Positions 23,902 through 41,414 of a stretch of 64,000 nt of DNA are shown one piece after another. The stretch spans positions 5,120,001 through 5,184,000 of the forward strand of contig OY843751.1 of assembly GCA_963693055.1 (NCBI GenBank), written 5' to 3'. The DNA comes from a bacterium (GTDB lineage Bacteria > Zhuqueibacterota > Zhuqueibacteria > Residuimicrobiales > Krinioviventaceae). The first letter of the stretch is position 1. Every line of letters begins with the position of its first letter. The notes beneath the pieces are model-generated. The model did not search any database, was not told the origin of the DNA, and worked only from the letters and a program-made list of their open reading frames with translations. The translations under genes were made by a program, and so were the position numbers.

Positions 23902-24432
23902 ATGGTGGAACCCGATATGGAAGCAAATCACAAAGAAGCTTTTAACAACCGCATCGTTTTTTCTGAAAAGACTTATCAAAACATTATCAGCATTTTAACT
24001 GAACTGCGCACACGCCTCAATGCCAAAATCACTATTTTTGCGGATATGAACGGGTATCCCATCGGATATGATGAAACAGTACCCGCAATTGACATTACCT
24101 CACTAACGGCTCTTGCATCTGGTACATTTTCAGCAACATCCGAAATGGCAAAAATGGTACAGGAACAAGATAAATTTCGCTTTATCTATCTTGAAGGTAA
24201 AGAGAATAATATTTACATGTGTAATGTTAGTAAAGATTACCTGATCATTGTCTTGTTCGACAAGAGTGTAGCTATGGGTATGGTAAGAATACTGACCCAC
24301 AATACAGTTGAAAAACTGTCAAAAATATTGGATGAGTTGTCAATGGAGAATCAGCAGGCATCCAAATACATAGACATAGAATTTAAATCTATGCTTAATA
24401 AAGAATTGGATAAATTTTTCGGAATTGACTAG
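23902..24432 (+). CDS. mglB: Roadblock/LC7 protein, MglB-like GAP
   Basis: DITSLTALASGTFSATSEMA and MGMVR pattern; directly upstream of mglA. Confidence 0.85.
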   Translation: MVEPDMEANHKEAFNNRIVFSEKTYQNIISILTELRTRLNAKITIFADMNGYPIGYDETVPAIDITSLTALASGTFSATSEMAKMVQEQDKFRFIYLEGKENNIYMCNVSKDYLIIVLFDKSVAMGMVRILTHNTVEKLSKILDELSMENQQASKYIDIEFKSMLNKELDKFFGID

Positions 24433-24438
24433 TTTTAT

Positions 24439-25011
24439 ATGTATATAGATCAAAACAGACAAGAAATACAGTTCAAAATTGTATATTATGGGCCGGGTTT
24501 GGGTGGCAAAACAACAAACCTGGAATATATCCATGCCAATATTGATCCCTCAATTCGTGGTGAACTGGTTAGCCTGAAAACCAAGGACGAGCGCACGCTC
24601 TATTTTGACTTCATGCAGCTTGAACTGGGACAAATCAACAACAAAAAACCACGCTTTCATCTTTATACAATCCCCGGACAGTTGCATTACAGCTTTAGCC
24701 GCAAAATCATTTTGCGTGGCACAGACGCTGTGGTCTTTGTTGCGGACTCTCAACCGCTTCGAATGGATGACAATCTAGACACCCTGCTTGACCTGGAACA
24801 AAAGCTGATTGAACAGGGCGCCTCACTCGATTCTTTTCCATGGGTTATGCAATACAACAAAAGAGATCTCACCAATTCCATGAGTATTGATGAAATGCAG
24901 TCTAAACTTAATTTTTTAAACGTTCCCTATCACCAGGCCATTGCAACAAAGGGAAACGGAGTTTTTGAAACCCTGAAAACAGCCATCCAACTGGTTATTG
25001 AAAAAATGTAG
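24439..25011 (+). CDS. mglA: MglA small Ras-like GTPase
   Basis: YYGPGLGGKTTN, ERTLYFD, TIPGQ, NKRD, AIAT. Confidence 0.93.
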   Translation: MYIDQNRQEIQFKIVYYGPGLGGKTTNLEYIHANIDPSIRGELVSLKTKDERTLYFDFMQLELGQINNKKPRFHLYTIPGQLHYSFSRKIILRGTDAVVFVADSQPLRMDDNLDTLLDLEQKLIEQGASLDSFPWVMQYNKRDLTNSMSIDEMQSKLNFLNVPYHQAIATKGNGVFETLKTAIQLVIEKM

Positions 25012-25019
25012 AGGAAAAC

Positions 25020-25454
25020 ATGCCAGGCTTTCCCAAAAACGGAAAAAACACACCGCACCATCACCAGAACAACTCGATACAAGTTAAAATAGAAACCATA
25101 CTAACCAATCTGGTTAATAGCGGCCTTTACGATGCCATCTATTTGTTTGACGAAACCGGTTTGCCCATCGTTCAGCGTAAAAAGAACCAAGCCTTTAGTA
25201 ATGATATTGAGACTGTTGAAGTTACCACGTTAATGAATCAGATCAAATCTTCAACAACACGTATAGAAGAATTTGAAAAATTGAACGAGATCATTATTGA
25301 AAGCAGTACCGGTAAAAGGCTCATTTTTAGATTTATTGACTTTTTTGGACAAACTGCAACACTGGTTGCTATTATTCCCCAGGGAAAAAGCTATAGAAAT
25401 ATGACCAACAATCTGCTGCGCACTCTTGACCGTCTAACTGAATCGGAATTGTAG
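25020..25454 (+). CDS. Second roadblock/profilin-like fold protein
   Basis: AIYLFDETGLPI pattern typical of roadblock domains; operonic with mglA. Confidence 0.55.
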   Translation: MPGFPKNGKNTPHHHQNNSIQVKIETILTNLVNSGLYDAIYLFDETGLPIVQRKKNQAFSNDIETVEVTTLMNQIKSSTTRIEEFEKLNEIIIESSTGKRLIFRFIDFFGQTATLVAIIPQGKSYRNMTNNLLRTLDRLTESEL

Positions 25455-26828: not shown

Positions 26829-27095
26829 ATGGACAAAAAAAGTACAAAACCAAACACAGCCAAAAAGTCGAATAAAACCTTTTTGGATTTTTCAGCCCGC
26901 AACTATCAAATATTCGGTGTTGCGTTGGTTGTTATCGTTTTGGGTTATTTTGCAATGGCCCAACCCCCTGCGGAAGGTGCTATGTCTTTGACAGTTGCGC
27001 CCATTCTGCTGGTCATTGGTTACTGTATTTTGATTCCTTTGTCTATTTTCTGGCGCCCTAAAAAGCAAGCCAGTGCCACAACAATGGGCGATTAG
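26829..27095 (+). CDS. DUF3098-like small membrane protein
   Basis: NYQIFG...LTVAPILLVIGY pattern; stop codon lies inside tRNA-Val. Confidence 0.75.
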   Translation: MDKKSTKPNTAKKSNKTFLDFSARNYQIFGVALVVIVLGYFAMAQPPAEGAMSLTVAPILLVIGYCILIPLSIFWRPKKQASATTMGD

Positions 27096-27160
27096 CTCAG
27101 TTGGTCTAGAGCACCTGCCTTACAAGCAGGGGGTCGCTGGTTCGACTCCAGCATCGCCCA
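27086..27160 (+). tRNA. tRNA-Val(TAC)
   Basis: GGGCGAT/ATCGCCC acceptor, cctgc-ctTACaa-gcagg anticodon arm, GGTTCGACTCC T arm. Confidence 0.97.
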
Positions 27161-27241
27161 CAGCCGCAAGGCACATCAAGATAAAAGATTTTTATTGCAT
27201 CTTGATAAAAAAAGCACTAAGTTGTTAGTGCAAACCCAAAC

Positions 27242-27315
27242 GGGGTCGTGGTGCAGATGGTTAGCACATCGGCCTGTCAAGCCGAAGGTCGCGGGTTCAA
27301 GTCCCGTCGGCCCCG
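27242..27315 (+). tRNA. tRNA-Asp(GTC)
   Basis: GGGGTCG/CGGCCCC acceptor, tcggc-ctGTCaa-gccga, GGTTCAAGTCC. Confidence 0.97.
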
Positions 27316-28065
27316 CAAAAAGCCTCAGAATTTTTCTGGGGCTTTTTTGTTTTCAGGGGATATAATATAGAGGTCATTCTGATTTCAATTTGAGACTTGC
27401 CCCGCAAAAAGCCTCAGAAATTTTCTGGAACTTTTTTGTTTTTAGGGGATATATTGCAATGGCCGTCCCGATTCCACTTCGGGGTTGGTACCTGATAATT
27501 ACATCTAAATTCATTCAAGGTCTTTTATCAAATCAATTGGGGGTAAATATGGGGAAAACAGATCAATTTTTCGTTTATGTTTTAAAAAATCCATTCGGGA
27601 AGTTCTATGTGGGGCAAACTCAAAATCTTGAAGAACGATTAAACAGACATAACTGTGGCCAATCCACATACACAAAAAACAGAGGCCCTTGGGAATTAGT
27701 TTATTATGAACCTGTAGAATCCCGATCAGCAGCTATGCAAAGAGAAAAAGAAATCAAGAATAAAAAAAGCGCAAAATATATACAATGGTTAATCGATAGT
27801 CAAAATATCTAACCTTATCTAACCGTGGTCGTCCCGAATTCACTTCGGGATCGGCCCCGCAAAAAGCCTCAGAATTTTTCTGGGGCTTTTTTGTTTTCAG
27901 GGGATATAATATAGAGGTCATTCTGATTTCAATTTGAGACTTGCCCCGCAAAAAGCCTCAGAATTTTTCTGGGGCTTTTTTGTTTCTAGAGGGGTGTATT
28001 GCCGAGGTCATCCCGAATTCACTTCGGGATCGTCTACGCAAGAAGCCTCTGAAATTCTTCAGGGG
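27310..28065 (+). repeat. Tandem 89-bp units derived from the tRNA-Asp 3' end plus terminator
   Basis: gccccgcaaaaagcctcagaa... at 27310, 27399, 27854, 27943 and a degenerate copy at 28032. Confidence 0.9.
27549..27812 (+). CDS. Small GIY-YIG nuclease (YhbQ/UPF0213-like)
   Basis: VYVL...YVGQT...RLNRHN...GPWELVYYE...AMQREKEIK; 87 aa from ATG 27549. Confidence 0.92.
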   Translation: MGKTDQFFVYVLKNPFGKFYVGQTQNLEERLNRHNCGQSTYTKNRGPWELVYYEPVESRSAAMQREKEIKNKKSAKYIQWLIDSQNI

Positions 28066-28370
28066 ATTACCATGTAGAACGAAATTTATTTCGTTTACCC
28101 GGCGCAGATGGACCCGGCAGGACGCGACTTGACGAATCATTTATCGTTATTAGCAGGCGAGCCCTCATGATAAAATAGTGCCAACCTGCAAAGCCCCCAG
28201 AGTATTCGAAATGAGAGTTGAATGGTATAATCAGAGTTGTAATGGAGACAATCTCTCACAGTAACAGTTTACAAGGTCAATTCAATCCTGTAATCCTTTA
28301 ATCATACAAATCATAACTCAAACAAAAAAGCGTCGAGTACTGCATGGTTAGCAGAAGACTGGTGCTTCAT
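28032..28370. repeat. Inter-cassette spacer, copy 1 (also 30305-30631 and 32484-32819)
   Basis: cgcaagaagcctctgaaattcttcaggggatt(a/g)ccatgtagaacgaaatt...gacccggcagg... shared by three loci. Confidence 0.88.
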
Positions 28371-28408
28371 GATGAAAACTCGTGCCACAAGTACGGGCTA
28401 CAGTCTAT

Positions 28409-29104
28409 TCACTCGTTTTCAATTTTCGTAAAACAAATATCCTTAAACTCTAATTTTTCAACAATATTTTTAAAATTCTCTGTTACAATAATTGCAGTTG
28501 GCAATTCAACAATTCTAAAAACCTCTTCATCCAAAAGTTTTGGTGAAATACTAATTTTTATCTTATCCGGCATTGTGATAGGGATGCGTCCACATCTTTC
28601 ACACTTTTCAATAGGATAATCTAAAATTCTGGCTTTGGGGATTATCTGAAATTCATAATAATCAAAATCCCTTTTATCATTCATTACAATTTTCGTTTTA
28701 GCAACCTTAGGTAACTTTATATCCTCTTTTTTCAATAATTCATATGCATTATAACTTACCAGTAGCGTCCACGGATTAAGCCATGCAAAGTCATAGAACC
28801 TACCTTTTGCAATACCTTGTAAAGGACCAAATTTTGTTCCAGGCAAAACAAACATATCTTTAAATAAATTATCTGTAGTTGGTTTCATCTCATGATGTGT
28901 TTGCCATGGATAAGGCTTTCGAATTGAATAATACTCTTCATATTCAGCATATTCATTACTTAAAACAATATTTGGATATTGAATACCAGTAACGGCCCAT
29001 TTGCTTTTGCATATGTCACAAATCATACCGGGTATACTATATTTGTGAACAGCATCAATTAAATAACTTTTTGATTTGTCACATGAAATTTTATAAAAAC
29101 TCAT
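28409..29104 (-). CDS. Double-CXXCG motif (SitI6-like) immunity protein
   Basis: HKYSIPGMICDICK...W...GIQYP, LPGTKFGPLQG, CERCGR; directly downstream of the toxin tip. Confidence 0.8.
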   Translation of the reverse strand: MSFYKISCDKSKSYLIDAVHKYSIPGMICDICKSKWAVTGIQYPNIVLSNEYAEYEEYYSIRKPYPWQTHHEMKPTTDNLFKDMFVLPGTKFGPLQGIAKGRFYDFAWLNPWTLLVSYNAYELLKKEDIKLPKVAKTKIVMNDKRDFDYYEFQIIPKARILDYPIEKCERCGRIPITMPDKIKISISPKLLDEEVFRIVELPTAIIVTENFKNIVEKLEFKDICFTKIENE

Positions 29105-29113
29105 ATTAACCTT

Positions 29114-30225
29114 TCAATATAAAATTTTGATATTAATTTGAGCTTGATTTAAATCAAAATCATACAACATCTTACCCAATTGTTTATAAATATCCTTGTC
29201 ATTAGCCATTGGATTTAAATCAAAAAAATCTTGCCATGCTTTATTCCAGTTTCCTCCTCGAGCTCCTCCTCCATGTATACCTGTTGAACCAATATAAACT
29301 CTTCTTGGGAGTGGCATTATATAATCATGTATATCTATTCCTTGTTCTACAAACTTCTCAGCTAAATCTTGTCTTTGAGAGAAAATATGATGACCTTGAA
29401 TAGGCGTTGCTTCAATTGCTGTTGGATAATCATACGTAAATACACTAAAATCTTCATCAACTACATCATCTAAACCAAATCGTTGTGACCCTAACTCACG
29501 TCTTTGAAAAAAATCAGTGTTAGGTACCAAGTTTGACTGTAACATTTCCGGAGTATCAGCCAATCCACCAGTCCATGGATTATACCCCATATTTTTAGCA
29601 TACCTATAACCTCCAATACCACCAAAAAGGCCTCCACCGACTGCTCCCCCAATAAAACCTGCCCAAACATCCTGGCCGGAAAGCCCAGCTGTTAAGGCAC
29701 CAACCCCTCCACCAGTGGCTGCACCATATGCCAATCCTGGCAGGAACCCAGCGGGAGCGAATATTGAAGCAGCTGTACCTAAACCTCCACCTAAGGCCCC
29801 AATACCAACTGAAGAGAAAAAGCCCCCTACTCGAAATTATCAGAGTGGTTTATTGCATATGAAATGCCACCTGTTGCGCCACCAATTAGCGCACCTGCAA
29901 GAATTACTTGCCAAAACTCCCCATCCGGATCCACCATAATCAATGGATTATTGCCGCAATACACATACGGGCTGAATCCCTGTCCAGCGGGGTCAGGCAC
30001 AAACCAACGGCCAATCTCGGGATTATAGTATCTTGCTCCAAAGCCGCAGCGTAGCGGAGGTGCGCCTATGGAGTATAATAAAGTCCGATGTCTGAGTCAA
30101 GCTCTTTTTGTGAGAACTGGTAGCTGTTATCATCATTCCCCGAAGCGACCAGAGTTTCACCAAAGGGGGTGTAATCACGGGTCATATCTAAATTGCTCAG
30201 CCGTCGAGTACTGCAAATCTGATTC
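29114..30225 (-). pseudogene. Orphan Rhs cassette A1 with DUF2380/SitA6-like toxin tip; frameshifted and interrupted
   Basis: DYTPFGE...QKELD..GLYY[32-nt insert]FGARYYNPEIGRWFVPDP...NPLIMVDPDG; frameshift near 29830; tip HHIFSQ...IDIH...HGGGARGGNWNKAW. Confidence 0.85.
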
Positions 30226-30304
30226 AGTCCCCATCCCGTAAGTAACGGATCACGCTTTCTAATCTCGCAGCATTTTCCCTCCGGGATGTAAAAGCCCAAG
30301 ACCA

Positions 30305-30631
30305 GCCCCGCAAGAAGCCTCAGAAATTCTTCAGGGGATTGCCATGTAGAACGAAATTCATTTCGCTTGTTCAGCGCAGACTGACCCGGCAGGACGCGAC
30401 TTGACGCATCATTTATCTTTATTAGCAGACAGGCCTCATGATAAAATAGAGCTAACCTGCAAAGCCCCCAAAACATTCGAAATGGATAAAAGAGTTATAA
30501 TCAGAGTAGTGACGGAGATAATCTCCCCCATGATCAGTTTTACAAGATCATTTCAATCCTTTAATCCAACAAATCTTAATTCAGACAAAAAAAACGCCGG
30601 GTACTGCGTGGTTAGCAGTGAAACGGCGCTT
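30305..30631. repeat. Inter-cassette spacer, copy 2
   Basis: Starts gccccgcaagaagcctcagaa; aligns with 28032 and 32484. Confidence 0.88.
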
Positions 30632-30759
30632 AATAAAGGTATTTATTCGTTGGATAAATGTCAAGGGAAATTAAAAAAAATCTATCCATCTAACCAGAAC
30701 ATAATAATTATTTCCCCTTTTCAGGGATAAAATTTAATATACATGAATAAAAATTTACC

Positions 30760-31245
30760 TTATGGTTTAAATCTTCTTGTAATAAAGAAATCAATGGGGC
30801 CGATATCAAAATATTCATCATCAATTTTTATATAATTTTGAGCCTTAATAGTTACTTTATCTCCAATATTTAATATTTTATCTCCTTTATAATAAAATCC
30901 ATATCTAAAAATGTCGCTCTCTTTATTGAGATTTACATTTAACTTTTCATATTCTTTTCCTTTATAAAGAATATAATATTCAGCTTGATTATCATTAAAA
31001 AATATTTTTAATGAATCCAAAAAAAATTGAATTGAATCTTTAGTATTTACACTTTCAAGTACGCCAAAATGTATATTATGCATTGTATCTAAACTAAATG
31101 ATAAGGTAGTATTGTTAATATTAATTATTTTTTCATCACTTCCATTTTTTAATAATAATGTAGCCTTTGGATCACAACTAAAAAAAACAAAAAAAACAAG
31201 AACACCAAATTGAAATATTTTACAATTTCCAGGGATTTTTTCCAT
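30760..31245 (-). CDS. Putative immunity lipoprotein (cassette A2)
   Basis: FFVFFSC lipobox; overlaps the toxin 3' end; very AT-rich. Confidence 0.65.
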   Translation of the reverse strand: MEKIPGNCKIFQFGVLVFFVFFSCDPKATLLLKNGSDEKIININNTTLSFSLDTMHNIHFGVLESVNTKDSIQFFLDSLKIFFNDNQAEYYILYKGKEYEKLNVNLNKESDIFRYGFYYKGDKILNIGDKVTIKAQNYIKIDDEYFDIGPIDFFITRRFKP

Positions 31246-32400
31246 ATGCAATCCTTTCCTGATAATTTGCACGTCCCTTTGAATCATGACCTATCGATAA
31301 AGCATAGTACATTTGTAATATAAAATTTGGAAAAAAAGAATTATTAAAAGCTCGTGAGGTCCATAGATGATGAAGTTCATGTTTCCAATAATTAGTTCCA
31401 GGAGCTTCATTAATAACACTAAAAGCTCCAAAGCCTCTACCATTTATACTTTTTATTGTACCACCTGTATAATAAGGTGTTAAATGATTCTTATCAAATC
31501 CCCATTCCCCCTTACCAAAGAATTTATTTCCAATACCTAATGCATTAATAGCAATATTTCCAATATTATTTTCAGCTTGCAATAAGCGCTGATTTTTACC
31601 AAATGTAAAATTAACTGGGCCAACTCCAATAGTATATTTTGAAAATAGATCTCTTCCTGCAGCCCAATTATTCCCAACGGAACTACCTGCGGTTGCTAAA
31701 CCTTGATATCCAAGTCTCCCCCAGAATCCCTTTTTAACCATACCAAATCCACCGGTAATATTAAAAGCACCAGAAGCAGCTCCAGTAATACCAAACTTCC
31801 AAAGATCACCACCATTTGCACCTGATGAATAAGCCATAGCCATATTAACATTAGCACCATTGACAATACTCGATGTTATACCCCAACTCGTTGTTGCAGC
31901 AACTTGTGGAGTTCCAACCCCAGTAGCAATGGCTGAGGGATATAAAGGAACAGCAATCATAGAACCAATTCCTGCTCCAATAAAACCACCTGTAATAGCT
32001 CCTTTCCACCAATCTATATCATTATTATGAGCTATAATACCACCAGATGTTGCACCAATCGTTGCACCTATTGCCATAGCAATAAATACAGGATTCCTTC
32101 CATCCGGATCCACCATAATTAACGGATTATTGCCACAATACACATACGGGCTAAATCCCTGTCCGGCGGGGTCTGGCACAAACCAGCGCCCAATCTCGGG
32201 GTTATAGTATCTTGCTCCAAAGCCGCAGCGTAGCGGAGGTGCGCCTATGGAGTATAGTAAAGTCCGATATCCGAGTAAAGCTCTTTTTGCGAGAACTGGT
32301 AGCTGTTATCATCATTCCCCGAAGCGACCAGGGTTTCGCCAAATGGGGTATAATCGCGGGTCATGTCGGAGTTGCTCAAGCGTCGTGTACTGCAAATCTG
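31220..32400 (-). pseudogene. Orphan Rhs cassette A2 with Gly-rich linker and HExxH tip (ORF 31220-32179)
   Basis: PYVYCGNNPLIMVDPDG core end, KHELHH...NYQE; same 32-nt insert at GLYY|FGARY. Confidence 0.85.
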
Positions 32401-32483
32401 ATTCAGTCCCCATCCCGTAAGTAACGGATCACGCTTTCTAATCTCGCAGCATTTTCCCTCCGGGATGTAAAAGCCCAAGACCA

Positions 32484-32819
32484 GCCCCGCAAAAAGCCTC
32501 TGAAATTCTTCAGGGGATTACCATGTAGAACGAAATTCATTTCGTTTGTCCGGTGCAGACGGACCCGGCAGGCAGGATGCGCCTTGGCGTATCATTTATC
32601 TTTATTAGTAGGCGGACCTCATGATACAATAGAGCTAAATTGCCCCCCCAGAGCATACGAAATAAAGCAAAGATATATAATCAGAGTTGTTACGGAGTCA
32701 ATCTCCCCCATGATCTGTTTTACAACGTCATATCAATCCTATAATCCCTTAATCCTACAAATCATAATTCAGACAAAAAAAGCGCCGGTTACTGCTTGGG
32801 TAGCAGTGTGACGGCGCTT
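32484..32819. repeat. Inter-cassette spacer, copy 3
   Basis: Starts gccccgcaaaaagcctctgaa; aligns with copies 1 and 2. Confidence 0.88.
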
Positions 32820-32917
32820 AAAGAAAGTTCAATATGGCTAACGTTTCAATTTCTTAACCCATTTTTGCAAACCTGTTGGTGTGCGCTGTAAAACTACAGG
32901 CTATAGAAAATAATGAA

Positions 32918-33472
32918 TTATGAAAAATAATTATAAGAACTATCCAAATATGCTATTTTTTTTATTTTACCTTTTAATGCAATAAATTCAATTAATCCAA
33001 ATAGATAAACAAACAACATTAACAGTATTGAAGTTAATATACCACTACTAAAACTATAATCTTCGTAAAAAAAAGAATAAAAAAATGGTAAAATCACACT
33101 AATCCAAGGAAAAAAAATTGACTTAAATTGCGCTTGTATTAAAGAACCAGCTTTATCATTAATAATAGTCAATTTACATTCGAGAAATACTAAAGTCCCC
33201 CATTGAATCCATTTAAAATATTTTCTTCGAAGTAAAATTGCATCATCAGCAATAATTTTTTTGGGTGAAATGTTTTCCTTAATAAATTTCATTATTTCAT
33301 CCCTTGAATAACTACTAGAAATGGAAAATTTATACATTGGGATTCCATAATAAAACAAATTACGAAAACCTTTTCTATCATAGAAATTGATGAATGGCAT
33401 ATATTTGATAAAATAGAATACTAATTCAAAAACGATTAAAAAAAATATTATATCTTTTAAAATAATTATCAT
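32918..33472 (-). CDS. Putative membrane immunity protein (cassette B1)
   Basis: ATGA overlap with the toxin stop; about three TM helices. Confidence 0.65.
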   Translation of the reverse strand: MIIILKDIIFFLIVFELVFYFIKYMPFINFYDRKGFRNLFYYGIPMYKFSISSSYSRDEIMKFIKENISPKKIIADDAILLRRKYFKWIQWGTLVFLECKLTIINDKAGSLIQAQFKSIFFPWISVILPFFYSFFYEDYSFSSGILTSILLMLFVYLFGLIEFIALKGKIKKIAYLDSSYNYFS

Positions 33473-34465
33473 TCTTCTTCCTCTTGATATTGATATTTAT
33501 CTATTCTAGAGTATTCGATTGTGGTTTTAATCTCAATAATATCGTTGTAAATTTCTTTACCTCCTTTTGCTAATGCATCACCAACCTCAGTGAGGTTTAT
33601 ATTAACTCCGGCCCCGACAAGCCCAGCCTTAACTTCTAAACCTAATCCTAAATCTACATCCTTGTCAAATTCTGACACACTAGTACTTACCTCCTTAATC
33701 ATTTGAATATTTTCACCCTGATCCTTAAAACCCAATTCTCCTTTTAAATTTCCAAATCCAGCAACATTTACCTCCCCACTTACAGAACATCTAAATCCTA
33801 CAGAGAAATCTCCAGCTAAATTTATGTCTGCTGAAACTCCAGCTTGGGCAGAAAATCCAGCTTTAAGTGGACCCATTCGCCCTGTAACTCCTATTTGAGG
33901 TCCAATTGAACCTCCTGCTTCAACAATCTCACCAATTTCTTTAACAGCTACAGGATGTGAATATACAATATTTGCAATTAATTTATACATTTGTATTTGA
34001 TTAAAATTACCATTAAAATCTTTATATCTTAATGGGTTATTGTGACTATAATGATATGGAGTATAGTCTGGTGCCAAATCCGCCAACGGATCAACGCTGA
34101 TAAACCGCCCGACAACCGGATCGTGGTACCGCGCACCAAAACCGCAGGTCCGACCTCTGGCGGATAATAAAGATCAAGGCCGTGCTCATCATCCAACTCT
34201 TTGCCGGTAAATTTCTGGATCGTTTCAATGTCACTCGAAACCGAACTACGCGAAACTGAACCGAACGTTGGAGCGAAGCGGAAATCCGCCCACTGGCGGA
34301 GGTAGTAATCATAGCGCTCAACCACGTTTTGGTCCGCATCTATCCGCCTAACTGATTTGCGGACGTAACCGCAACCCGGGTACTTGACCGCCTACCGGCG
34401 GTTTACTCCGCCAGCGGGCGGACACGCCTGTGGTCGTGAATATGAAAATAATACTCGCCTGCTGA
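33469..34465 (-). pseudogene. Orphan Rhs cassette B1 (toxin tip ORF 33469-34086); core broken by palindromic inserts
   Basis: EYYFHIHDH..STRV..VERYDYY..PFG..KFTGKELD..LYY..FGARYHDP..GRFISVDP..PYHYSHNNPLRYKDFNG. Confidence 0.85.
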
Positions 34466-34678
34466 CACAACACTGTATTGAAGCATAACAAGAATAACGC
34501 AAAAAAGCAAACATTTTACTCGTGACGGAGACTATCTCTGTAACGGGTGCTTTTCAATCCTATAATCCCTCAATCCTATGAATCCCAATTCAGACAAATA
34601 AAAAAACGCCGCCACTGTATGGTTAGCAGTGTGACGGCGCATAATCAATTGGATACATTAATAATTTAAAACAATGAA

Positions 34679-35083
34679 TCAATCATAAAAATATTCATGA
34701 TCTGATGTTAAAAACTTCATTTTCCTTTTACATGTACAAGTATCAACGTCCATAAAAAACCGTACTACTTTGGCACCTTGTATTGGTATGCTGAAATAAT
34801 ATTTTGTAAAAAACTCATCCTTAAAATGTAACATTTCAGATTCAAATACAAGTGTATCCCTATTAGTAGAGTAGTAAAACCCGTCTGCAAAGCCAATATC
34901 ATCTTCACTTATTAATGTATCTTTTTCAAGATATATATTAAATGTATCTAACTTTACATAACTAACATATGTACCCCAAAAACCGTCTTCAAAAGCAATT
35001 CTTATTTTTGTGGGTTCTTTCGAAAAACTTGCTGAGAAAAAAAATAGTAATAAAAATGAATAAGAAAATATTTTCATAATCAT
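34679..35083 (-). CDS. Putative secreted immunity protein (cassette B2)
   Basis: Signal peptide; GGAG RBS; 6 bp after the toxin stop. Confidence 0.65.
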   Translation of the reverse strand: MIMKIFSYSFLLLFFFSASFSKEPTKIRIAFEDGFWGTYVSYVKLDTFNIYLEKDTLISEDDIGFADGFYYSTNRDTLVFESEMLHFKDEFFTKYYFSIPIQGAKVVRFFMDVDTCTCKRKMKFLTSDHEYFYD

Positions 35084-35089
35084 ATCTCC

Positions 35090-36075
35090 CTATTTTTGTT
35101 CATTTATCATTTTATGAGCTTTTTCAATCTGATTTTTGTTAATTTCCATCCCCTTCGAATCTTGGCTTTGAATCATTAAATTATTTCCTTGCCTTAACAC
35201 TCTTCCATTTGCATCCTTTGGATGTTCTAAATAACAACCATGACCGAATTCATGTGCACCAGTTCTTTTGACTTGATTAGCACCATGAAGAATTGTGGCT
35301 GTAGAAATCAACATTTTTTCTCCACCGATTTTACCCTTACCTGTTTTTTTATCAACATTTCTACCACCAACTGGTTTACCTGTAGAATTAGTCAAAGTAT
35401 TTGCATCAACAAATGCAAAAATATGATCAGTACCCTTCACTTTTTCAGGATCAGTATTTATGTTTACATCCATAACTACATTTGTACCTTGTACATTACC
35501 AAATGACTCCTCTATTCCAGATTTAATCAATTCCGCTGTTCTTTTCAGAACTCTATCTGTTATATTTTTTTAGTGCTTTCATTTACAAGAGAAGCGTTTA
35601 CTGTATTATTATATTGATTTTTTCCCTTATCATAAGTTGACGTTATCTCCCTCCCATCCGGGTCAACAAATATCAGCGGATTATTCATCGTATAATTATA
35701 CGGGCTCAACCCCGGATATTTCTCCGTCATGGGATCAACGCTGATAAACCGCCCGACAACCGGATCGTGGTAGCGTGCACCAAAACCGCAGGTCCGACCT
35801 CTGGCGGATAGTAAAGATCAAGGCCGTGCTCATCATCCAACTCTTTGCCGGTGAATTTCTGGATCGTCTCAATGTCATCAGATACTGTACTGCGCGAAAC
35901 AGAACCGAAGGGATAATAGTCATAGCGCTCAACCACGTTTTGGTCCGCATCTATCCGCCTAACTGATTTGCGGACGTAACCGCAACCCGGGTACTTGACC
36001 GCCTGCCGGCGGTTTACTCCGCCAGCGGGCGGACACGCCTGTGGTCGTGAATATGAAAATAATACTCGCCTGCTG
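35090..36075 (-). pseudogene. Orphan Rhs cassette B2 with metallopeptidase tip, frameshifted
   Basis: NNPLIFVDPDG core end; HEFGHGCYLEH...NNLM zinc motif; frameshift at the T7 run 35565-35571. Confidence 0.85.
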
Positions 36076-36301
36076 ACACAGCACTATATTGAATCATAAC
36101 AAGAATAACGCAAAATAGCAAACATTTTAATTAAATGTTCGCTATTCAGGGGATTGAGGATAAATCAAAAAGCGCCGGACAATGCATAGTTAGCAATGTA
36201 GCTCGGCGCTTGATAGTTTGGAATATAAAGCAAGTCTTAACTCGTAAAACCAGAATGTATACCGGGTAAGTAAAACCTGGGCCACAGGCCCAGATTACGA
36301 A

Positions 36302-36545
36302 CTATTGCGTTATTGGTTCATACGCTTGGGGAGGACCTTCATCTTTTTGGGGAATTGTATATGTGTGTTTCGCAATAATATAATCACCATCAACAAATGG
36401 ATTATAAATATTAGGATTATTTAATTCAATCATTCTTGACAAATTGGGAAGTGTAAAGATTTTTGTGTAAATCATGAACAAGGGTTCAATAACCCGTAGG
36501 GTTATTGAATTTCGATCGCTGATTGATTTGCACACACTTTTCCAA
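36302..36545 (-). pseudogene. Probable 3' fragment of the immunity gene split by IS256
   Basis: Open frame ending just before the shared cassette terminator; abuts the IS end. Confidence 0.5.
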
Positions 36546-37877
36546 GGGACTGTAAATTCGCTTGTGTTTTAAAAACAAATATTACATTTTATTAAATACA
36601 GGAGAATTTACCAATGAAACTTACACCTGAAATTATTAAACAACTTGAAAAAGATTTTGAAAATTGCAAGACAGCAGACGATCTGCTGGGCAAAAATGGT
36701 CTGGTCAAGAATTTGATTAAGGGCATATCAGACCAAATTATGGAAGCTGAAATGACCCAGCACTTGGGCTATGAGAGACATTCTTCAGAAGGTGATAACA
36801 GTGGCAATAGTAGAAACGGTCACAGCAGCAAAACAGTGAAGACAGATTTTGGTGAAATTGACATCAAAATCCCCCGTGATCGGAATGGAGAATTTGACCC
36901 GGTACTTGTCAAAAAGCACCAGCGTGATCTGGGCAAAATAGATGAAATTATCGTTGCCTTATATGCCAAAGGTCTGAGTACAAGAGACATCAAAGACCAC
37001 CTGGAAACACTTTACGGCCTGGACGCTTCCCCAACATTTATTTCCAATGTTACCGAACGGGTACGCGAGCTTGTCGTTGAATGGCAGTCAAGACCGTTGG
37101 ATAGCGTTTATCCTATTGTTTATTTGGATGCTATCCACTATAAGATACGTGACGAAGGGCGTATTATAAACAAGGCCGCCTATACTGTACTGGGAATCAA
37201 TGGTGAAGGCTTTAAGGATTTACTTGGTATTTGGATCGACCAGTCCGAGGGCGCCAATTTCTGGCTGTCTGTTTTAACCGATATACGAAACCGTGGGGTT
37301 GAAGATATTCTGATTGCATGCGTAGATGGGCTGAAAGGCTTTCCGGATGCTATTGCCAGCATTTTTCCCGATACTGAAGTCCAGCTTTGTATCATCCATC
37401 AAATCCGTAACTCGCTTCGTTATGTTGCATCAAAACATCAAAAAGAATTTATCAAAGATCTGAAGCTGGTTTATCAAAGCACAACTAAAGAAAACGCTGA
37501 ACTGCAACTGGATCGCCTTGAACAAAAATGGGGGGTCAAATATCCCATTGTTATCAATTCCTGGAGAAAAAACTGGGACAACCTGTCCAACTATTTTAAA
37601 TATCCCGAAGAAATTCGGCGAATGATCTATACCACAAATAGTGTAGAGGCTCTGCACCGGCAGCTTCGCAAAGTCACTAAAACCAAATCTCTGTTCCCCC
37701 ACGATGATGCGTTGAAAAAAATGCTGTTTCTGGCCTACAGGGATATTGCTAAAAAATGGTCGCAGCCCATCAGAAACTGGGCCTTTGTTGTTTCTCAATT
37801 TTCTATTATATTTAAAGACAGGATGAAAATCCAAATATAGCACTACTATTCATTTACACAAAAAAGTTTACAGTCTC
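36546..37877 (+). mobile_element. IS256 family insertion sequence
   Basis: Imperfect terminal IRs gggactgtaaa...tgtgt / acaca...tttacagtctc enclosing a transposase. Confidence 0.9.
36614..37840 (+). CDS. IS256 family transposase
   Basis: NSRNG, IPRDRNG, VYLDA, VDGLKG, QLCIIH, YTTNSVE. Confidence 0.97.
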   Translation: MKLTPEIIKQLEKDFENCKTADDLLGKNGLVKNLIKGISDQIMEAEMTQHLGYERHSSEGDNSGNSRNGHSSKTVKTDFGEIDIKIPRDRNGEFDPVLVKKHQRDLGKIDEIIVALYAKGLSTRDIKDHLETLYGLDASPTFISNVTERVRELVVEWQSRPLDSVYPIVYLDAIHYKIRDEGRIINKAAYTVLGINGEGFKDLLGIWIDQSEGANFWLSVLTDIRNRGVEDILIACVDGLKGFPDAIASIFPDTEVQLCIIHQIRNSLRYVASKHQKEFIKDLKLVYQSTTKENAELQLDRLEQKWGVKYPIVINSWRKNWDNLSNYFKYPEEIRRMIYTTNSVEALHRQLRKVTKTKSLFPHDDALKKMLFLAYRDIAKKWSQPIRNWAFVVSQFSIIFKDRMKIQI

Positions 37878-38286
37878 ACAAATTGTCATCATCCTTGTCA
37901 AATCCCCAAGAATAAAATACAAATGAGTATGTCGAATCCTCAAAATTTGTTTCGCATTTAAATGAATATTTGATATCATACAATTGCAATAAATATGGTT
38001 TAATTAATGAATCAAAACCTTCTATATTTTCAATTTCATTTAAACTTGGTATTCTATTATTAAAATAATAATAATCATTTATATATAAAGATATGGGATC
38101 ATCAAGTATTAAAATACGACGCATATAATAAATACGATTATGTATAAATAATGCATATAAAAAAGAAAATACAACAATGAGAGCGATAATATTCTTTGAT
38201 GATTTTGTTTTAAATATTTTATTTCTTAAGGAAAAAATAAATAATGAAATAATAAATGTAATCCATGGAAATAATACTAAATTCAA
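37878..38286 (-). pseudogene. 5' fragment of an immunity-like membrane protein truncated by IS256
   Basis: Two TM helices then YSWGFDKDDDN; the stop codon is supplied by the IS end. Confidence 0.65.
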
Positions 38287-38511
38287 TTTTTCACCTTTTT
38301 ATTGTAAGACATTTAATTTTTAATAATATAAGCGTTGTCTACTATTCATTCTTGATATTCCAACAGTGCTCCAGTTTTTTGTGGCTGTAACTTCATTAGT
38401 GCTACGCACTAATGATGCCATTGATCCTTTTTTAACTGTTGCACTTGTTACTTGAACTTACGAGTGTAAACAACGCTCGCAATATCATTATTTTAATATT
38501 ATTTTGAGTCT

Positions 38512-39460
38512 TTAGTTTTCTTTTTCTTCTTCTTCTTTATCTCTTGATTCTTGTCCCTTATGTAAATTTTCATTCCATTGTTTAATCCATACATTATATT
38601 GCTCAATTGTCATAGATAACTTAATAATAGCTAAGCCTTTAACTTCATCATTAGAGTTATAATAACACAAAATAATCCTTGAATTTTCATCACCCTTGGT
38701 ACCATGTCTATCATCTCTTTTTATCATTTTAATATTCATGTTTTCAGGTTTTGAAACAAAAACTTCTATGTCACCCCCATATTCAGTGTCTTGACCATGC
38801 AATATATTTTGTGAAGGATCGCCCGCCGCTGGTCCATACGCCATGCCAGTTTCATATACTTGTCGAGGTCCACCACTATATTCACCACTCATTTCAATAC
38901 CTTCTATAGGAACCGAGATATCAGGATATTGTTTCTTTTGTTCTCCTTGCTTGAATCGAAATTCTTTTTCGGCTGTACGCATAGCATTCATTATTATTTG
39001 ATGTTCTTCTTTAGTCATAGGTCTTTTCCCATCCGGATCAACCAGTATCAATGGATTGTTCATCGTATAATTATACGGGCTCAACCCCGGATACTTGTCC
39101 GCCATGGGATCAACGCTGATAAACCGCCCGGCGACCGGATCGTGGTATCGTACGCCGAAATAGTAAAGATCAAGGCCGTGCTCGTCATCCAACTCTTTGC
39201 CGGTGAATTTCTGGATCGTTTCGATGTCACTCGAAACCGTACTGCGCGAGACAGAACCGAACGTTGGAGCGAAGCGGAAATCCGCCCACTGGCGGAGGTA
39301 GTAATCATACCGCTCAACAACGTTCTGGTCCGCGTCTATCCGCCTTACTGATTGGCGGACGTAACCGCAACCCGGGTACTTGACCGCCTACTGGCGGTTT
39401 ACTCCACCAGCGGGCGGACACGCCTGTGGTCGTGAATATGAAAATAATACTCACCTGCTG
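38512..39460 (-). pseudogene. Orphan Rhs cassette B3 (ORF 38512-39192), unknown toxin tip
   Basis: LYYFGVRYHDPVAGRFISVDP...NNPLILVDPDG; upstream core carries palindromic inserts. Confidence 0.85.
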
Positions 39461-39936
39461 ACTTGTCCGACCTCTGGCGGAAACCGCACTGTATTGGATC
39501 ATAACCAAAATAACGCAAAAAAGCAAACATTATAATTAAATGTGTTTTCATCCGTGAGGACCAGTGCGGTTACGTGGCACGATTCAGTCGCGAAAAGCTC
39601 TTACCGCAAAGCCCGCGGAGCATTCGCGATGAACGCAAAGATATAATCGGGGTCATAATGGATACAATCTCTGCCGCAACCGTTTTTAAAACATTATTTC
39701 AATCTTATAATCCCTTAATCCTATAAATCATAATTCAGACAAAAAAAGCGCCGGTTACTGCATGATTAGCAGTGCCGGCGCTTAAAGTAGTAAACACGTG
39801 CTATATAATGGCACGAGTATTATGATTGTAATGCATAGATGTAGAAAACGGATAAAAAAATCGTGCCACAGGCACGGGCTACCAACTGGGAATCCTGTTC
39901 CAAGGACATGAACATCATTCTATTCATTGTAAGGAA

Positions 39937-40340
39937 TCAAGCACAATCAGAGCTCCAATGAATTCTAAATAGTAAATCAATTGCCGCATTATACCTATTC
40001 GATTCATGAAATGGTACAAACAGCAGAATTGGTATTATAGACTCAAGAATAATATTGTAACTTGGATTGAGCATATTGAAAATTAAAATGGATAAAACGA
40101 CATGATAAAAAATCAACTTAACTTGTTTTGGACATTTATTATCACTTTCTTTTGGATAAATTTTAAAAATGGCCATCCCAGCGGTTCGCCCTTTTAATAA
40201 AAGAAACATCTGAAATATTGGATTTTTTCATATTGAACTAATAAATTGAGTTCAATTTTCCAAAGAGAATGAAATATTTATAAAATCTATAACATTTAAA
40301 ATTGTTCTTTGACAAAATTTACTATCATTACTCTAATACA
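39937..40340 (-). pseudogene. Degraded RDD-like membrane gene, remnant of a sixth cassette
   Basis: KGRTAGMAIFKI motif; followed by the shared cassette terminator at 39741; abuts IS5. Confidence 0.5.
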
Positions 40341-40347
40341 TAGGTTA

Positions 40348-41414
40348 TATACCTACGAAATGGCTCAAGTGGTTAATGTAACCATACGCCTGATATTATA
40401 AACCCATGCTGCAATCACAAATTCAAAACGATTTCGGCCCATATCATAATAACTGCACCGATCATAATCTAATACTTGCTTCATAAAGGCAAACGGTCTT
40501 TCAACTGCATTCCGAACTTTAGATAATTGCTTATTTCTTTTTACCTGCTTTGATGTCAAATTTCGGTTTCTATATCCTTTATCAAGAATGCCGCAATAGA
40601 CTCCTTTGCCTCGCAGGTTGCACTTGCGGGCTTTGTTCGTGTAACCTTTATCTGCGAACACCGCATTTTCTTTTTCTGTTATCAGATCCGGAAAAAGATT
40701 TGTGTCGTGAATACTTGCGCTGGTAAACTCTACAGAATGAATAATATCACTGTCCAAATCTGTACCAATATGGCCTTTGTAGCCATAATGCGTTTTGCCA
40801 CGTTTCTTTGTGAAATCTGCATCACGATCACGCTTGCTTCCTGGTTTCGCTTGTGCTTGTTTTATAGTTGCATCAACAAGTGTTCCTTTGCCAACGATCA
40901 GACCCATTTTTTCAAGCTGTTTGTTGAATTGCCGGAACAGTATTTTATCAAGACCAAGGCGAGAAAATTGTTCACGATAGCGACAGATAGTGGTCTCGTC
41001 AGGGATTGCATCAGCACTGGTCAGTTCCAGAAACAATTGAAAACTACGTCGATCCGCAATCTCTTCTTCCAGGCGAGGATCGGATAAACCATAGATACGT
41101 TGTAATAAAAAACAACGAACAATAACTAACAAATCAAATGACGGCTTGCCTGCATTTGATTTTCTGGTTTTTGATTGTTCAATACGTTCTTCAATGGGTT
41201 CAAGTAAATTTTGCCAATCAATTTTTTCTTTGATAATTTCCAGAGCTTGTTTGCTTTGGGTTTTTATATGCTTTTTGAAATTTTCATTTGCTGCTGTGGT
41301 AAACAAGTCTTCATTGTGTATTCTATTGCGACCCATGTAAAACTCCAGTTTTTTTTATCATACAGCAAATTAGTAAATTATTACCTTTGATTCTAATAAT
41401 ATTTCAGAGGTTTC
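40348..41414 (-). mobile_element. IS5 family insertion sequence
   Basis: Imperfect IRs tatacctacgaaat / atttcagaggtttc; ends approximate. Confidence 0.75.
40365..41336 (-). CDS. IS5 family transposase
   Basis: LSDPRLEE, PDETTICRYR, VDAT, GYKGH, ADKGY, RNAVERPF. Confidence 0.95.
   Translation of the reverse strand: MGRNRIHNEDLFTTAANENFKKHIKTQSKQALEIIKEKIDWQNLLEPIEERIEQSKTRKSNAGKPSFDLLVIVRCFLLQRIYGLSDPRLEEEIADRRSFQLFLELTSADAIPDETTICRYREQFSRLGLDKILFRQFNKQLEKMGLIVGKGTLVDATIKQAQAKPGSKRDRDADFTKKRGKTHYGYKGHIGTDLDSDIIHSVEFTSASIHDTNLFPDLITEKENAVFADKGYTNKARKCNLRGKGVYCGILDKGYRNRNLTSKQVKRNKQLSKVRNAVERPFAFMKQVLDYDRCSYYDMGRNRFEFVIAAWVYNIRRMVTLTT

Follow-up and report, generated by a model that had tools for sequence, protein, structure and literature searches.

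A candidate bank of spare toxin and immunity cassettes, probably begun at pgm, and its possible link to a split Rhs system in a Zhuqueibacteria genome

Introduction

Why would a bacterium keep a row of Rhs toxin tips and immunity genes with no complete rhs gene in front of them? The locus that raises this question lies in a 64,000-nucleotide stretch of a Zhuqueibacteria chromosome (G000:C1:5120001-5184000, here called the window), in a source genome, G000, that consists of one contig of 6.535 Mb. The window holds five co-oriented minus-strand cassettes, each with an Rhs core, a variable tip and an immunity or putative immunity gene, and part of a sixth. A first-pass annotation took these for a stand-alone cassette library that grows at the end of the neighbouring tRNA-Asp gene. 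The library has held up, the growing end has not.

The reading that we narrowly favour is that the array stores spare third-chain genes belonging to a split Rhs toxin, as a bank that retains immunity, was begun at pgm and has been reshuffled at its spacers. A wider proposal, put forward more tentatively, is that of a three-piece Rhs weapon whose chains leave the cell through a dedicated type II secretion-like system and come together in trans. The cassettes would then be mobile units of warhead and immunity gene, moving from one chromosomal repeat to another and forming arrays at several loci.

The genus is represented by two genomes, G000 and the 98% complete G001, and class-wide comparisons covered 125 genomes. 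Rhs cores were scored by the TIGR03696 cut-off and tRNA genes by ARAGORN together with Rfam. Signal-peptide-like segments were judged by a simple, crude hydropathy rule. Read evidence consisted of the contigs of three runs from one sample, possibly the source sample.

The array and its damage

All five Rhs cores of the window score above the TIGR03696 cut-off, all on the minus strand, with an NPxxxxDPxG-type motif at about 29967, 32146, 34056, 35700 and 39075. The two core families that had been proposed are borne out. The core A copies (29921-30633 and 32100-32821) share 88% identity and the core B copies (34079-34518, 35723-36129 and 39098-39534) share 83-87%. What follows the cores is different each time: no mutual blastp similarity was found among the six tips (the longest open piece being used for the two frameshifted ones), nor any among the six immunity proteins. 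The immunity genes have a GC content of 0.21-0.30, against 0.394 for the genome. Cassette 1 combines a SitA6-like tip, just under the TIGR02269 cut-off and over that of Pfam DUF2380, with a SitI6 immunity gene. The immunity partner is supported by this family match in cassette 1, by co-occurrence in the sixth unit (cassette 0) and by position only in the other four. The features of the array are as follows (window positions).

28032..28372, minus strand: terminal long spacer, with hairpin at 28321-28372, GTCTGAATT/GGATT repeat arm and leader of about 290 bp
28409..29104, minus strand: immunity gene 1, SitI6 family double-CXXCG protein, intact, 231 aa (TIGR02264 above cut-off; PF09535)
29114..29915, minus strand: toxin tip 1, SitA6/DUF2380-like, with a stop and a frameshift near 29827 (PF09533 above cut-off, TIGR02269 just under)
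29916..30304, minus strand: core A stub 1 and leader; 32-nt insertion at about 30045-30076 between LYY and FGARYY
30305..30636, minus strand: long spacer, with hairpin at 30585-30636, repeat arm and leader ending with the 17-nt motif at 30305
30760..31287, minus strand: putative immunity gene 2, intact open reading frame (ORF) of at most 175 aa, GC 0.24, function judged from position
31220..32099, minus strand: toxin tip 2, open frame of 292 aa with a glycine-rich start, no toxin family matched
32100..32483, minus strand: core A stub 2 and leader; identical 32-nt insertion at 32224-32255
32484..32824, minus strand: long spacer, with hairpin at 32773-32824, repeat arm and leader ending with the 17-nt motif at 32484
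32918..33472, minus strand: putative immunity gene 3, intact ORF of 184 aa, GC 0.22
33469..34009, minus strand: toxin tip 3, open frame of 179 aa, no family matched
34010..34510, minus strand: core B 3, signal-peptide-like segment and Rhs plug; four short palindromic insertions
34520..34647, minus strand: short spacer, with hairpin at 34597-34647 and repeat arm, without the 17-nt motif
34679..35083, minus strand: putative immunity gene 4, intact ORF of 134 aa
35090..35650, minus strand: toxin tip 4, HEFGH metallopeptidase-like, frameshift near 35560 (Atlas lead 0.95; clusters with 12% Peptidase_M10 members)
35651..36125, minus strand: core B 4, signal-peptide-like segment and Rhs plug; three insertions
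36163..36216, minus strand: lone hairpin, without repeat arm
36302..36446, minus strand: immunity gene 5, 3' part
36447..37877, plus strand: IS256-family element inside immunity gene 5 (NF033543); near-identical copies elsewhere in G000
37878..38286, minus strand: putative immunity gene 5, 5' part
38512..39024, minus strand: toxin tip 5, open frame of 171 aa, no family matched
39025..39530, minus strand: core B 5, signal-peptide-like segment and Rhs plug; last ~70 codons intact, four insertions upstream
39540..39788, minus strand: spacer, with hairpin at 39739-39788, repeat arm and leader, without the 17-nt motif
39937..40202, minus strand: immunity gene 0, 3' half (90-codon ORF); 5' half and toxin at G000 362758-363673 beside pgm
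40203..41414, minus strand: IS5-family element (NF033581), one breakpoint of a chromosomal inversion

All six toxin genes of the array are broken, and the immunity frames are intact in four of the six units. Tips 1 and 4 are frameshifted, immunity gene 5 is divided by the IS256 element, and each of the five window cores is interrupted by short palindromic insertions. These are dense, 20-44 nt long, of the CCGCC...GGCGG type and placed inside conserved Rhs motifs (window 34142-34428, 39264-39481 and 30045-30076). The site between LYY and FGARY has been struck in both core families by unrelated inserts, each 3n+2 nucleotides long. Short palindromes related to the core insertions are also present at a few other sites of G000. 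The damage forms no gradient along the array, and every unit retains core and tip, unlike immunity-only arrays. Contigs from the three runs are letter-identical to the window over five unique stretches, both tip frameshifts included, and contain no credible excision joint. One contig joint, 35798-39486, was considered as an excision product and rejected, being explained by a matching copy at G000 362.8 kb.

A split Rhs system in the same genome

No full-length rhs or secretion gene adjoins the array, as had been noted at the outset. Could a matching full-length rhs gene lie elsewhere? No fused gene was found in G000 or G001, and all 11 TIGR03696 matches of G000 fall in open frames of 85-366 aa. 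What G000 does hold is two islands in which a shell, a connector and a plug-toxin are encoded by separate genes. The islands, each an operon followed by split Rhs genes, lie at G000:C1:1519441-1539973 and 2177812-2195088 (L134, L003, L135, L004), the first inside an element integrated in tRNA-Arg. The split Rhs genes proper (G000 1531026-1539973 and 2188410-2195088) stand behind T2SSE, secretin, T2SSF, pseudopilin and peptidase genes. The operons encode an ATPase, a secretin, PilN/PilO-like proteins, pseudopilins, T2SSF and a prepilin peptidase, as assigned by Pfam in island 1 and by similarity in island 2.

The shell is a YD protein of 1619 or 1704 aa that stops before the core. The connector has 558 aa with a DNRLRE domain, or 169 aa. 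The third gene, of 351 or 335 aa, opens with a signal-peptide-like segment and continues with the plug, which is the final ~110 aa of the core, and a tip; a putative immunity gene comes next after it in each island. Shell, connector and plug-toxin chains each start with a hydrophobic signal-peptide-like segment. The shell matches PF20041 at the cut-off, and 27 Protein Data Bank (PDB) sequences of Rhs/Tc cocoons match the shell profile. In a complex model of shell residues 885-1619, connector 525-558 and plug 24-135, the score was 0.78 against 0.00 for the best of three controls; the mark used is attained by 116 of 157 solved pairs and 2 of 215 mismatched pairs. The predicted local confidence (pLDDT) of the partners was at least 75 and the runs shared at least 93% of contacts. 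The island plug, connector tail and shell are predicted to form one cocoon.

How general is the split? The C-terminal part of the shell has matches in 19 of the 125 class genomes; with the query used, no shell was found in G001. Thirteen loci were examined, from 11 of the 18 other shell-matching genomes, with strong matches favoured. Eight of these have a shell that stops short of the core and is followed by a separate gene of connector type; four of the eight show the plug on a downstream gene. Among the remaining loci, one is a classical fused gene with trailing orphans (G096) and four could not be assigned. G004 carries two-chain and three-chain versions in tandem behind an operon. The operon stands beside the shell in G000 (twice), G004, G094 and G032, and is reduced to the ATPase at one G119 locus. 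Four shell homologs, P0084-P0087, terminate at the same motif. With a plug profile searched against 1.84 billion representatives, 24 of the best 150 matches have a signal-peptide-like start directly before the plug, an arrangement that the profile favours. One of ten plug proteins looked up had a source name, a Calditrichia metagenome-assembled genome. No earlier description of split or type II-linked Rhs was found in the literature searched, most subscription journals and supplements lying outside the search.

Two other observations concern the surroundings of the islands. The tRNA-Arg(TCT) gene harbours a ~60-kb element (G000:C1:1483408-1543244) with an integrase, a duplicated tRNA 5' half at 1543244 and what we take to be cas genes. 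Right after the second split Rhs come about 20 tandem co-oriented secreted proteins (G000:C1:2195605-2225691) with 'VGIG' repeats and coiled-coil-like C-termini; these presumably resemble tail-fibre or S74-chaperone-type proteins.

Array cassettes as probable broken third-chain genes

The link between the array and the split system runs through core B. This core opens with a hydrophobic segment that ends in VSA or ASA exactly where the intact third chains begin. The core B of G001, which is less damaged, aligns through the signal segment with 58% identity over 83 aa to signal-peptide and plug proteins, and such proteins are 15 of its 20 top matches among 258 proteins compared. Judged from these alignments, the core B cassettes are likely to be broken versions of a third (signal-peptide, plug and toxin) gene rather than truncated stubs. 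The array cores are not copies of the intact third-chain genes of G000, since the DNA identity is just 69-76%. G055, a genome of another family, has a counterpart of the cassette 0 pair, with 67% identity in the tip and 66% in the immunity protein; there the tip comes after a connector-like region and a plug. The long spacer of the array also closes the intact toxin-immunity pair of island 1. A core B protein scan of metagenomes gave one distant locus among 406 candidates.

A second array (G000:C1:2228354-2234241, L005) has the same spacers and core A. It lies inside island 2, about 33 kb after the split Rhs. An IS stands at its head together with a broken tyrosine recombinase gene, and no tRNA is present. 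One of its tip and immunity pairs is 41% and 36% identical to a G001 pair. The broken recombinase gene (G000 2226746-2227081) lies divergently upstream, and a search of 124 other genomes at E 1e-20 gave no close homolog of it. A lone broken Rhs core with a tip and a putative immunity gene, without spacer, occurs at G000:C1:1118516-1119863 (L002).

Probable origin at pgm and the IS5 inversion

Where did the array begin? The sixth unit had been described as a remnant. It does exist, and it is the 3' half of an immunity gene, the rest of which lies 4.8 Mb away. In G001 cassette 0 is intact (C2:1962553-1963932) and is 96% identical, in part to the window and in part to G000 362813-363673, which adjoins pgm and another IS5 copy. 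The four-base IS5 target is found on both halves, and in G001 the outer flanks of the IS5 copies adjoin each other (C3:2380080 and 2380095). With the IS5 copies at G000 364886 and 5160202, both reciprocal junctions of an inversion are accounted for. The distances from the GC-skew minimum (near 6.02 Mb) to the two breakpoints, one on each side, are about 0.86 and 0.88 Mb, which makes the inversion symmetric. The sixth unit is half a cassette severed by an IS5-IS5 inversion. Matching the halves of cassette 0 and the IS5 junctions to G001 gives the original order, as read from the sequences: pgm, cassette 0, the five cassettes, tRNA-Asp. A full rhs gene might have been expected where IS5 now sits, as in an ordinary decayed rhs locus, but tracing the junction gives one more cassette and then pgm, so no rhs gene formerly stood there. 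G001 has no rhs gene at pgm either. The array is thus a stand-alone set and not the tail of a full rhs gene, as had been proposed.

The array starts 220 bp from pgm in G000 and 230 bp in G001, and its cassette content differs between the two. In G001 the pgm array is 31.6 kb from the tRNA-Asp attR, across a block that is not in G000 at 85% identity or above. G001 keeps cassettes at three sites. Its cassette 0 occupies a site that is empty in G000. One cassette begins at the GTCTGAATT arm, ends with the hairpin and a complete two-armed repeat, and fills what in G000 is an empty site. For a second block, the two-armed repeat at its end is present by itself in G000. In G001 the filled sites start with a GTCTGAATT arm, degenerate or not, and lack the hairpin there. 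A degenerate hairpin is present at the pgm end of the array.

Five or more tandem secreted paralogs of about 1100-1190 aa with a shared C-terminal sorting-like domain were also seen at G001:C2:1940092-1957619 and G000 4.075-4.095 Mb.

Unit boundaries and the tRNA-Asp end

The proposed growth at tRNA-Asp drew on a 17-nt motif at the ends of the tRNA-proximal units. The features at that end are as follows (window positions).

27086..27161, plus strand: tRNA-Val(TAC) (ARAGORN, Rfam)
27242..27316, plus strand: tRNA-Asp(GTC), intact, last 16 nt single-copy in G000 (ARAGORN)
27310..27483, plus strand: two ~89-bp units, each the last 8 nt of tRNA-Asp, a terminator-like hairpin and a REP-like palindrome
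27552..27812, plus strand: GIY-YIG nuclease gene, 86 aa, amid tRNA-tail repeats (PF01541, 1.7e-18)
27823..28060, plus strand: more tRNA-tail units, merging into the last array spacer; degenerate 17-nt motif at 28032

The motif is present where it had been reported, at 28032 (degenerate), 30305 and 32484, and fails as a unit boundary. It occurs in three of six spacers and is missing from the three core-B spacers. When up to one mismatch is allowed, G000 has nine copies: the tRNA-tail repeats hold four and the array two, and the other three (1540409, 2229661 and 2234158) stand where ARAGORN finds no tRNA gene. The copy at 1540409 is 2.8 kb from the tRNA-Arg attR fragment, whose sequence is unlike it. 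Only 8 nt of the motif derive from the tRNA. The boundaries had also been called att-like, yet G000 has a single copy of the last 16 and of the last 22 nt of tRNA-Asp, and so no duplicated tRNA 3' end.

What does close every unit is a hairpin with a T-run, the shared terminator of the first-pass annotation. It is found in all six units and has an outer stem GCGCCG/CGGCGC, an inner stem ACTGC/GCAGT and the loop TAACCAT. A GTCTGAATT...GGATT arm follows it in five of the six. This arm is a dispersed repeat, with 29 regex matches in G000 (a few of them by chance), seven of which follow a hairpin. The long spacers are 81-86% identical without a gradient along the array, and their tree has none of nine branches supported and gives no order of events. 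When the hairpin structure was set by hand, 84.8% of cells paired, against 24-61% when it was slid; RNAalifold gave no consensus pairs. A covariance model built from 15 training copies and run over the 125 class genomes under strict filters found, beyond the training set, two weak matches only; these are also the only copies elsewhere than at the ends of cassettes or lone immunity-like genes. One of them lies about 120 bp after the tRNA-Asp attR of G001. The exact hairpin pattern had three matches in Genome Taxonomy Database (GTDB) contigs, all in one genome, and none in metagenomes. The long spacer ends in tRNA-tail-like sequence, and this end, together with the weak copy after the G001 attR, leaves room for a historical tie between the array spacer and the tRNA-Asp tail.

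Is the hairpin a recombination site? The RYYYAAC...GTTRRRY pair of the attC consensus is missing from five of six spacers on both strands. A GCTAACC...GGTTAGC pair across the long spacer was read as attC and rejected, as its distal site is not conserved. No integron integrase (TIGR02249) scores over the cut-off in G000 or G001; it is present in G004 and G050, and no hairpin was seen by eye at the integrase locus of G004. The seven PF00589 tyrosine recombinase matches in G000 are all away from the window. A link of GIY-YIG genes to CGTC-type REP repeats finds no mention in the main text of PMC3733652 (0 occurrences of GIY-YIG).

Several other features were recorded. The tRNA-Asp of G001 holds a 22.5-kb element (G001:C3:582676-605259) with an integrase, a methylase and helicase-like defence genes. 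A GxxExxY gene flanked by GTCTGAATT/AATTCAGAC palindromic repeats lies within a type I restriction locus at G034:C209:8032-9030 (L025) and is possibly an autonomous form of the repeat seen after the hairpin. Window 23902-25454 carries a roadblock-like gene, a small GTPase gene and a second roadblock-like gene, which we take to be an MglB/MglA-type neighbourhood; it is conserved in G001. The Rfam scan of the window gave two tRNAs and otherwise just two matches at chance level.

Competing explanations

If the array is a bank of spare third-chain genes, the cassettes would be third-chain and immunity units that arrive from other cells or islands and insert, are deleted or are swapped by crossover in the hairpin/GTCTGAATT spacer. 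They would be gained at several loci with no fixed growing end. The toxin halves would decay after arrival, and the immunity genes would be kept against neighbours with matching tips. The adjacency to tRNA-Asp would come from the shared tail sequence and from gain or loss of the 32-kb block, not from an att-driven integrase. Several observations weigh against this reading and the wider one. No copy of core B has a clear start codon, and a signal segment is not seen in core A. The DNA identity of array cores to intact third-chain genes extends over at most 188 bp. Immunity function is family-supported in just one of six genes, and two of the six are split by IS. The type II operon is absent upstream of the shell in L113, L116, L117 and L120. 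The complex model was built with the island's own plug and not an array core, and its score may be owed to likeness with solved Rhs/Tc cocoons. A spacer identity of just 81-86% is low for present-day homologous recombination. Covariation in the hairpin is not above that of shuffles (119, 61 and 22 of 500 for three measures), so it may be a mere terminator. Finally, no insertion or excision event was observed, the runs available being contigs of a single sample.

What if the array is only a leftover, a trailing stack of orphans from an Rhs island stripped of its delivery genes, without function and gathering IS and palindromes? The broken state of every toxin gene and the two IS insertions fit this, as do the similar array within island 2 and the classical fused gene with trailing orphans in G096. 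We nevertheless regard it as unlikely. In both species the array starts 220-230 bp from pgm and no remnant of a shell is present, yet the cassettes differ. Four immunity frames are intact although every core is struck, and cassettes persist at three sites of G001 though no shell was found there. A site-specific recombinase acting in trans, integron- or rAID-like, with the hairpin and its 7-nt loop as recombination site, seems rather more doubtful. Co-oriented low-GC genes with a conserved intergenic motif suggest such a system, the loop is more conserved than a terminator requires, a degenerate hairpin marks the pgm end, and the broken recombinase gene heads the second array. However, that gene lacks close homologs, neither pgm array has a recombinase beside it, both same-genus genomes are without an integron integrase over the cut-off, most spacers are without the attC pair, and the filled sites of G001 start at the repeat arm rather than the hairpin.

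Polar growth, with cassettes entering one by one at the 3' end of tRNA-Asp by way of an att core taken from the tRNA and perhaps with help from the GIY-YIG nuclease, is very improbable. Two tRNA-proximal units and the terminal spacer do bear the tRNA-tail 17-mer. In addition, the tRNA-Asp of G001 is an integration site with a weak hairpin copy after the attR. However, half of the spacers are without the motif, which is also found at three tRNA-free sites and is tRNA sequence for 8 nt only. There is no gradient of age or damage, the G001 array is 32 kb from the tRNA with no DNA match there to the GIY-YIG gene, and the same core A cassettes sit at 2.23 Mb without a tRNA. The neighbouring tRNA is probably not the builder of the array, and we return to the bank of third-chain genes as the preferred reading.

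Significance and comparison with known systems

If the wider proposal is true, Rhs delivery would have a new layout, with a conserved split into shell, connector and self-exported plug-toxin that often stands beside a type II secretion-like operon. Each warhead would be a complete small gene, so that a new toxin-immunity pair could be loaded with no need for recombination into a complete rhs gene. Among the short 'RHS-associated core' genes, many would then be real genes and not fragments, and cocoon loading would be directly testable by mixing chains. The array itself shows a storage mode: toxin halves are broken, immunity frames are mostly open, the spacer is common to the units and the content at one site is species-specific. 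To our knowledge, described Rhs toxins are single chains and change their weapon by recombining an orphan tip onto the full gene.

The closest parallels are the orphan rhs-CT/rhsI and cdiA-CT/cdiI modules, which in the passages considered here trail full genes and combine silent tips with immunity genes that are expressed (Poole et al., 2011; PMC3150448). Shared with these are the co-oriented core stub, variable tip and immunity gene, tips without a working start beside open immunity frames, movement between genomes and disruption by IS. The array differs from the modules described there in having no full-length gene upstream or genome-wide, a low DNA identity to intact toxin genes, a core B that corresponds to a whole signal-peptide gene and a conserved non-coding spacer that closes every unit. 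Fused Rhs with trailing modules is likewise what is described in the passages considered of PMC10539506, 10.64898/2026.07.13.738213 and 10.1101/2025.05.08.652813, the last with 0 occurrences of 'signal peptide' or 'split' in the text considered. The rAID arrays of Bacteroidales, as outlined in part of PMC12247911, combine a recombinase with immunity genes in one orientation and with motifs between the genes. In the present array the putative immunity genes are likewise co-oriented and low in GC and an intergenic motif is conserved, whereas tips are retained and pgm heads the array with no intact tyrosine recombinase adjacent. As in integron cassette arrays and CALIN, each cassette is closed by a palindromic site, but here there is neither IntI nor the attC consensus.

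Signal-peptide (T2SS/Sec) polymorphic toxins with RHS repeats were tabulated by Zhang et al. (2012; PMC3482391), and the table gives no signature neighbour genes for them. Signal peptide, RHS repeats and standalone toxin cassettes are common to those toxins and the present system; the shell/plug split and the dedicated operon are found here and not in the passages considered there. The YD shell of G000 is also sequence-related to the Tc TcB-TcC cocoon and to DUF6443 Rhs. The Tc cocoon, too, is built from more than one chain. Unlike in these, the cut here falls at the very end of the shell, and the toxin chain is the last ~110-aa plug with its own signal peptide. A DNRLRE-domain connector stands between them, a type II secretion-like operon is the partner and an immunity-like gene comes after.

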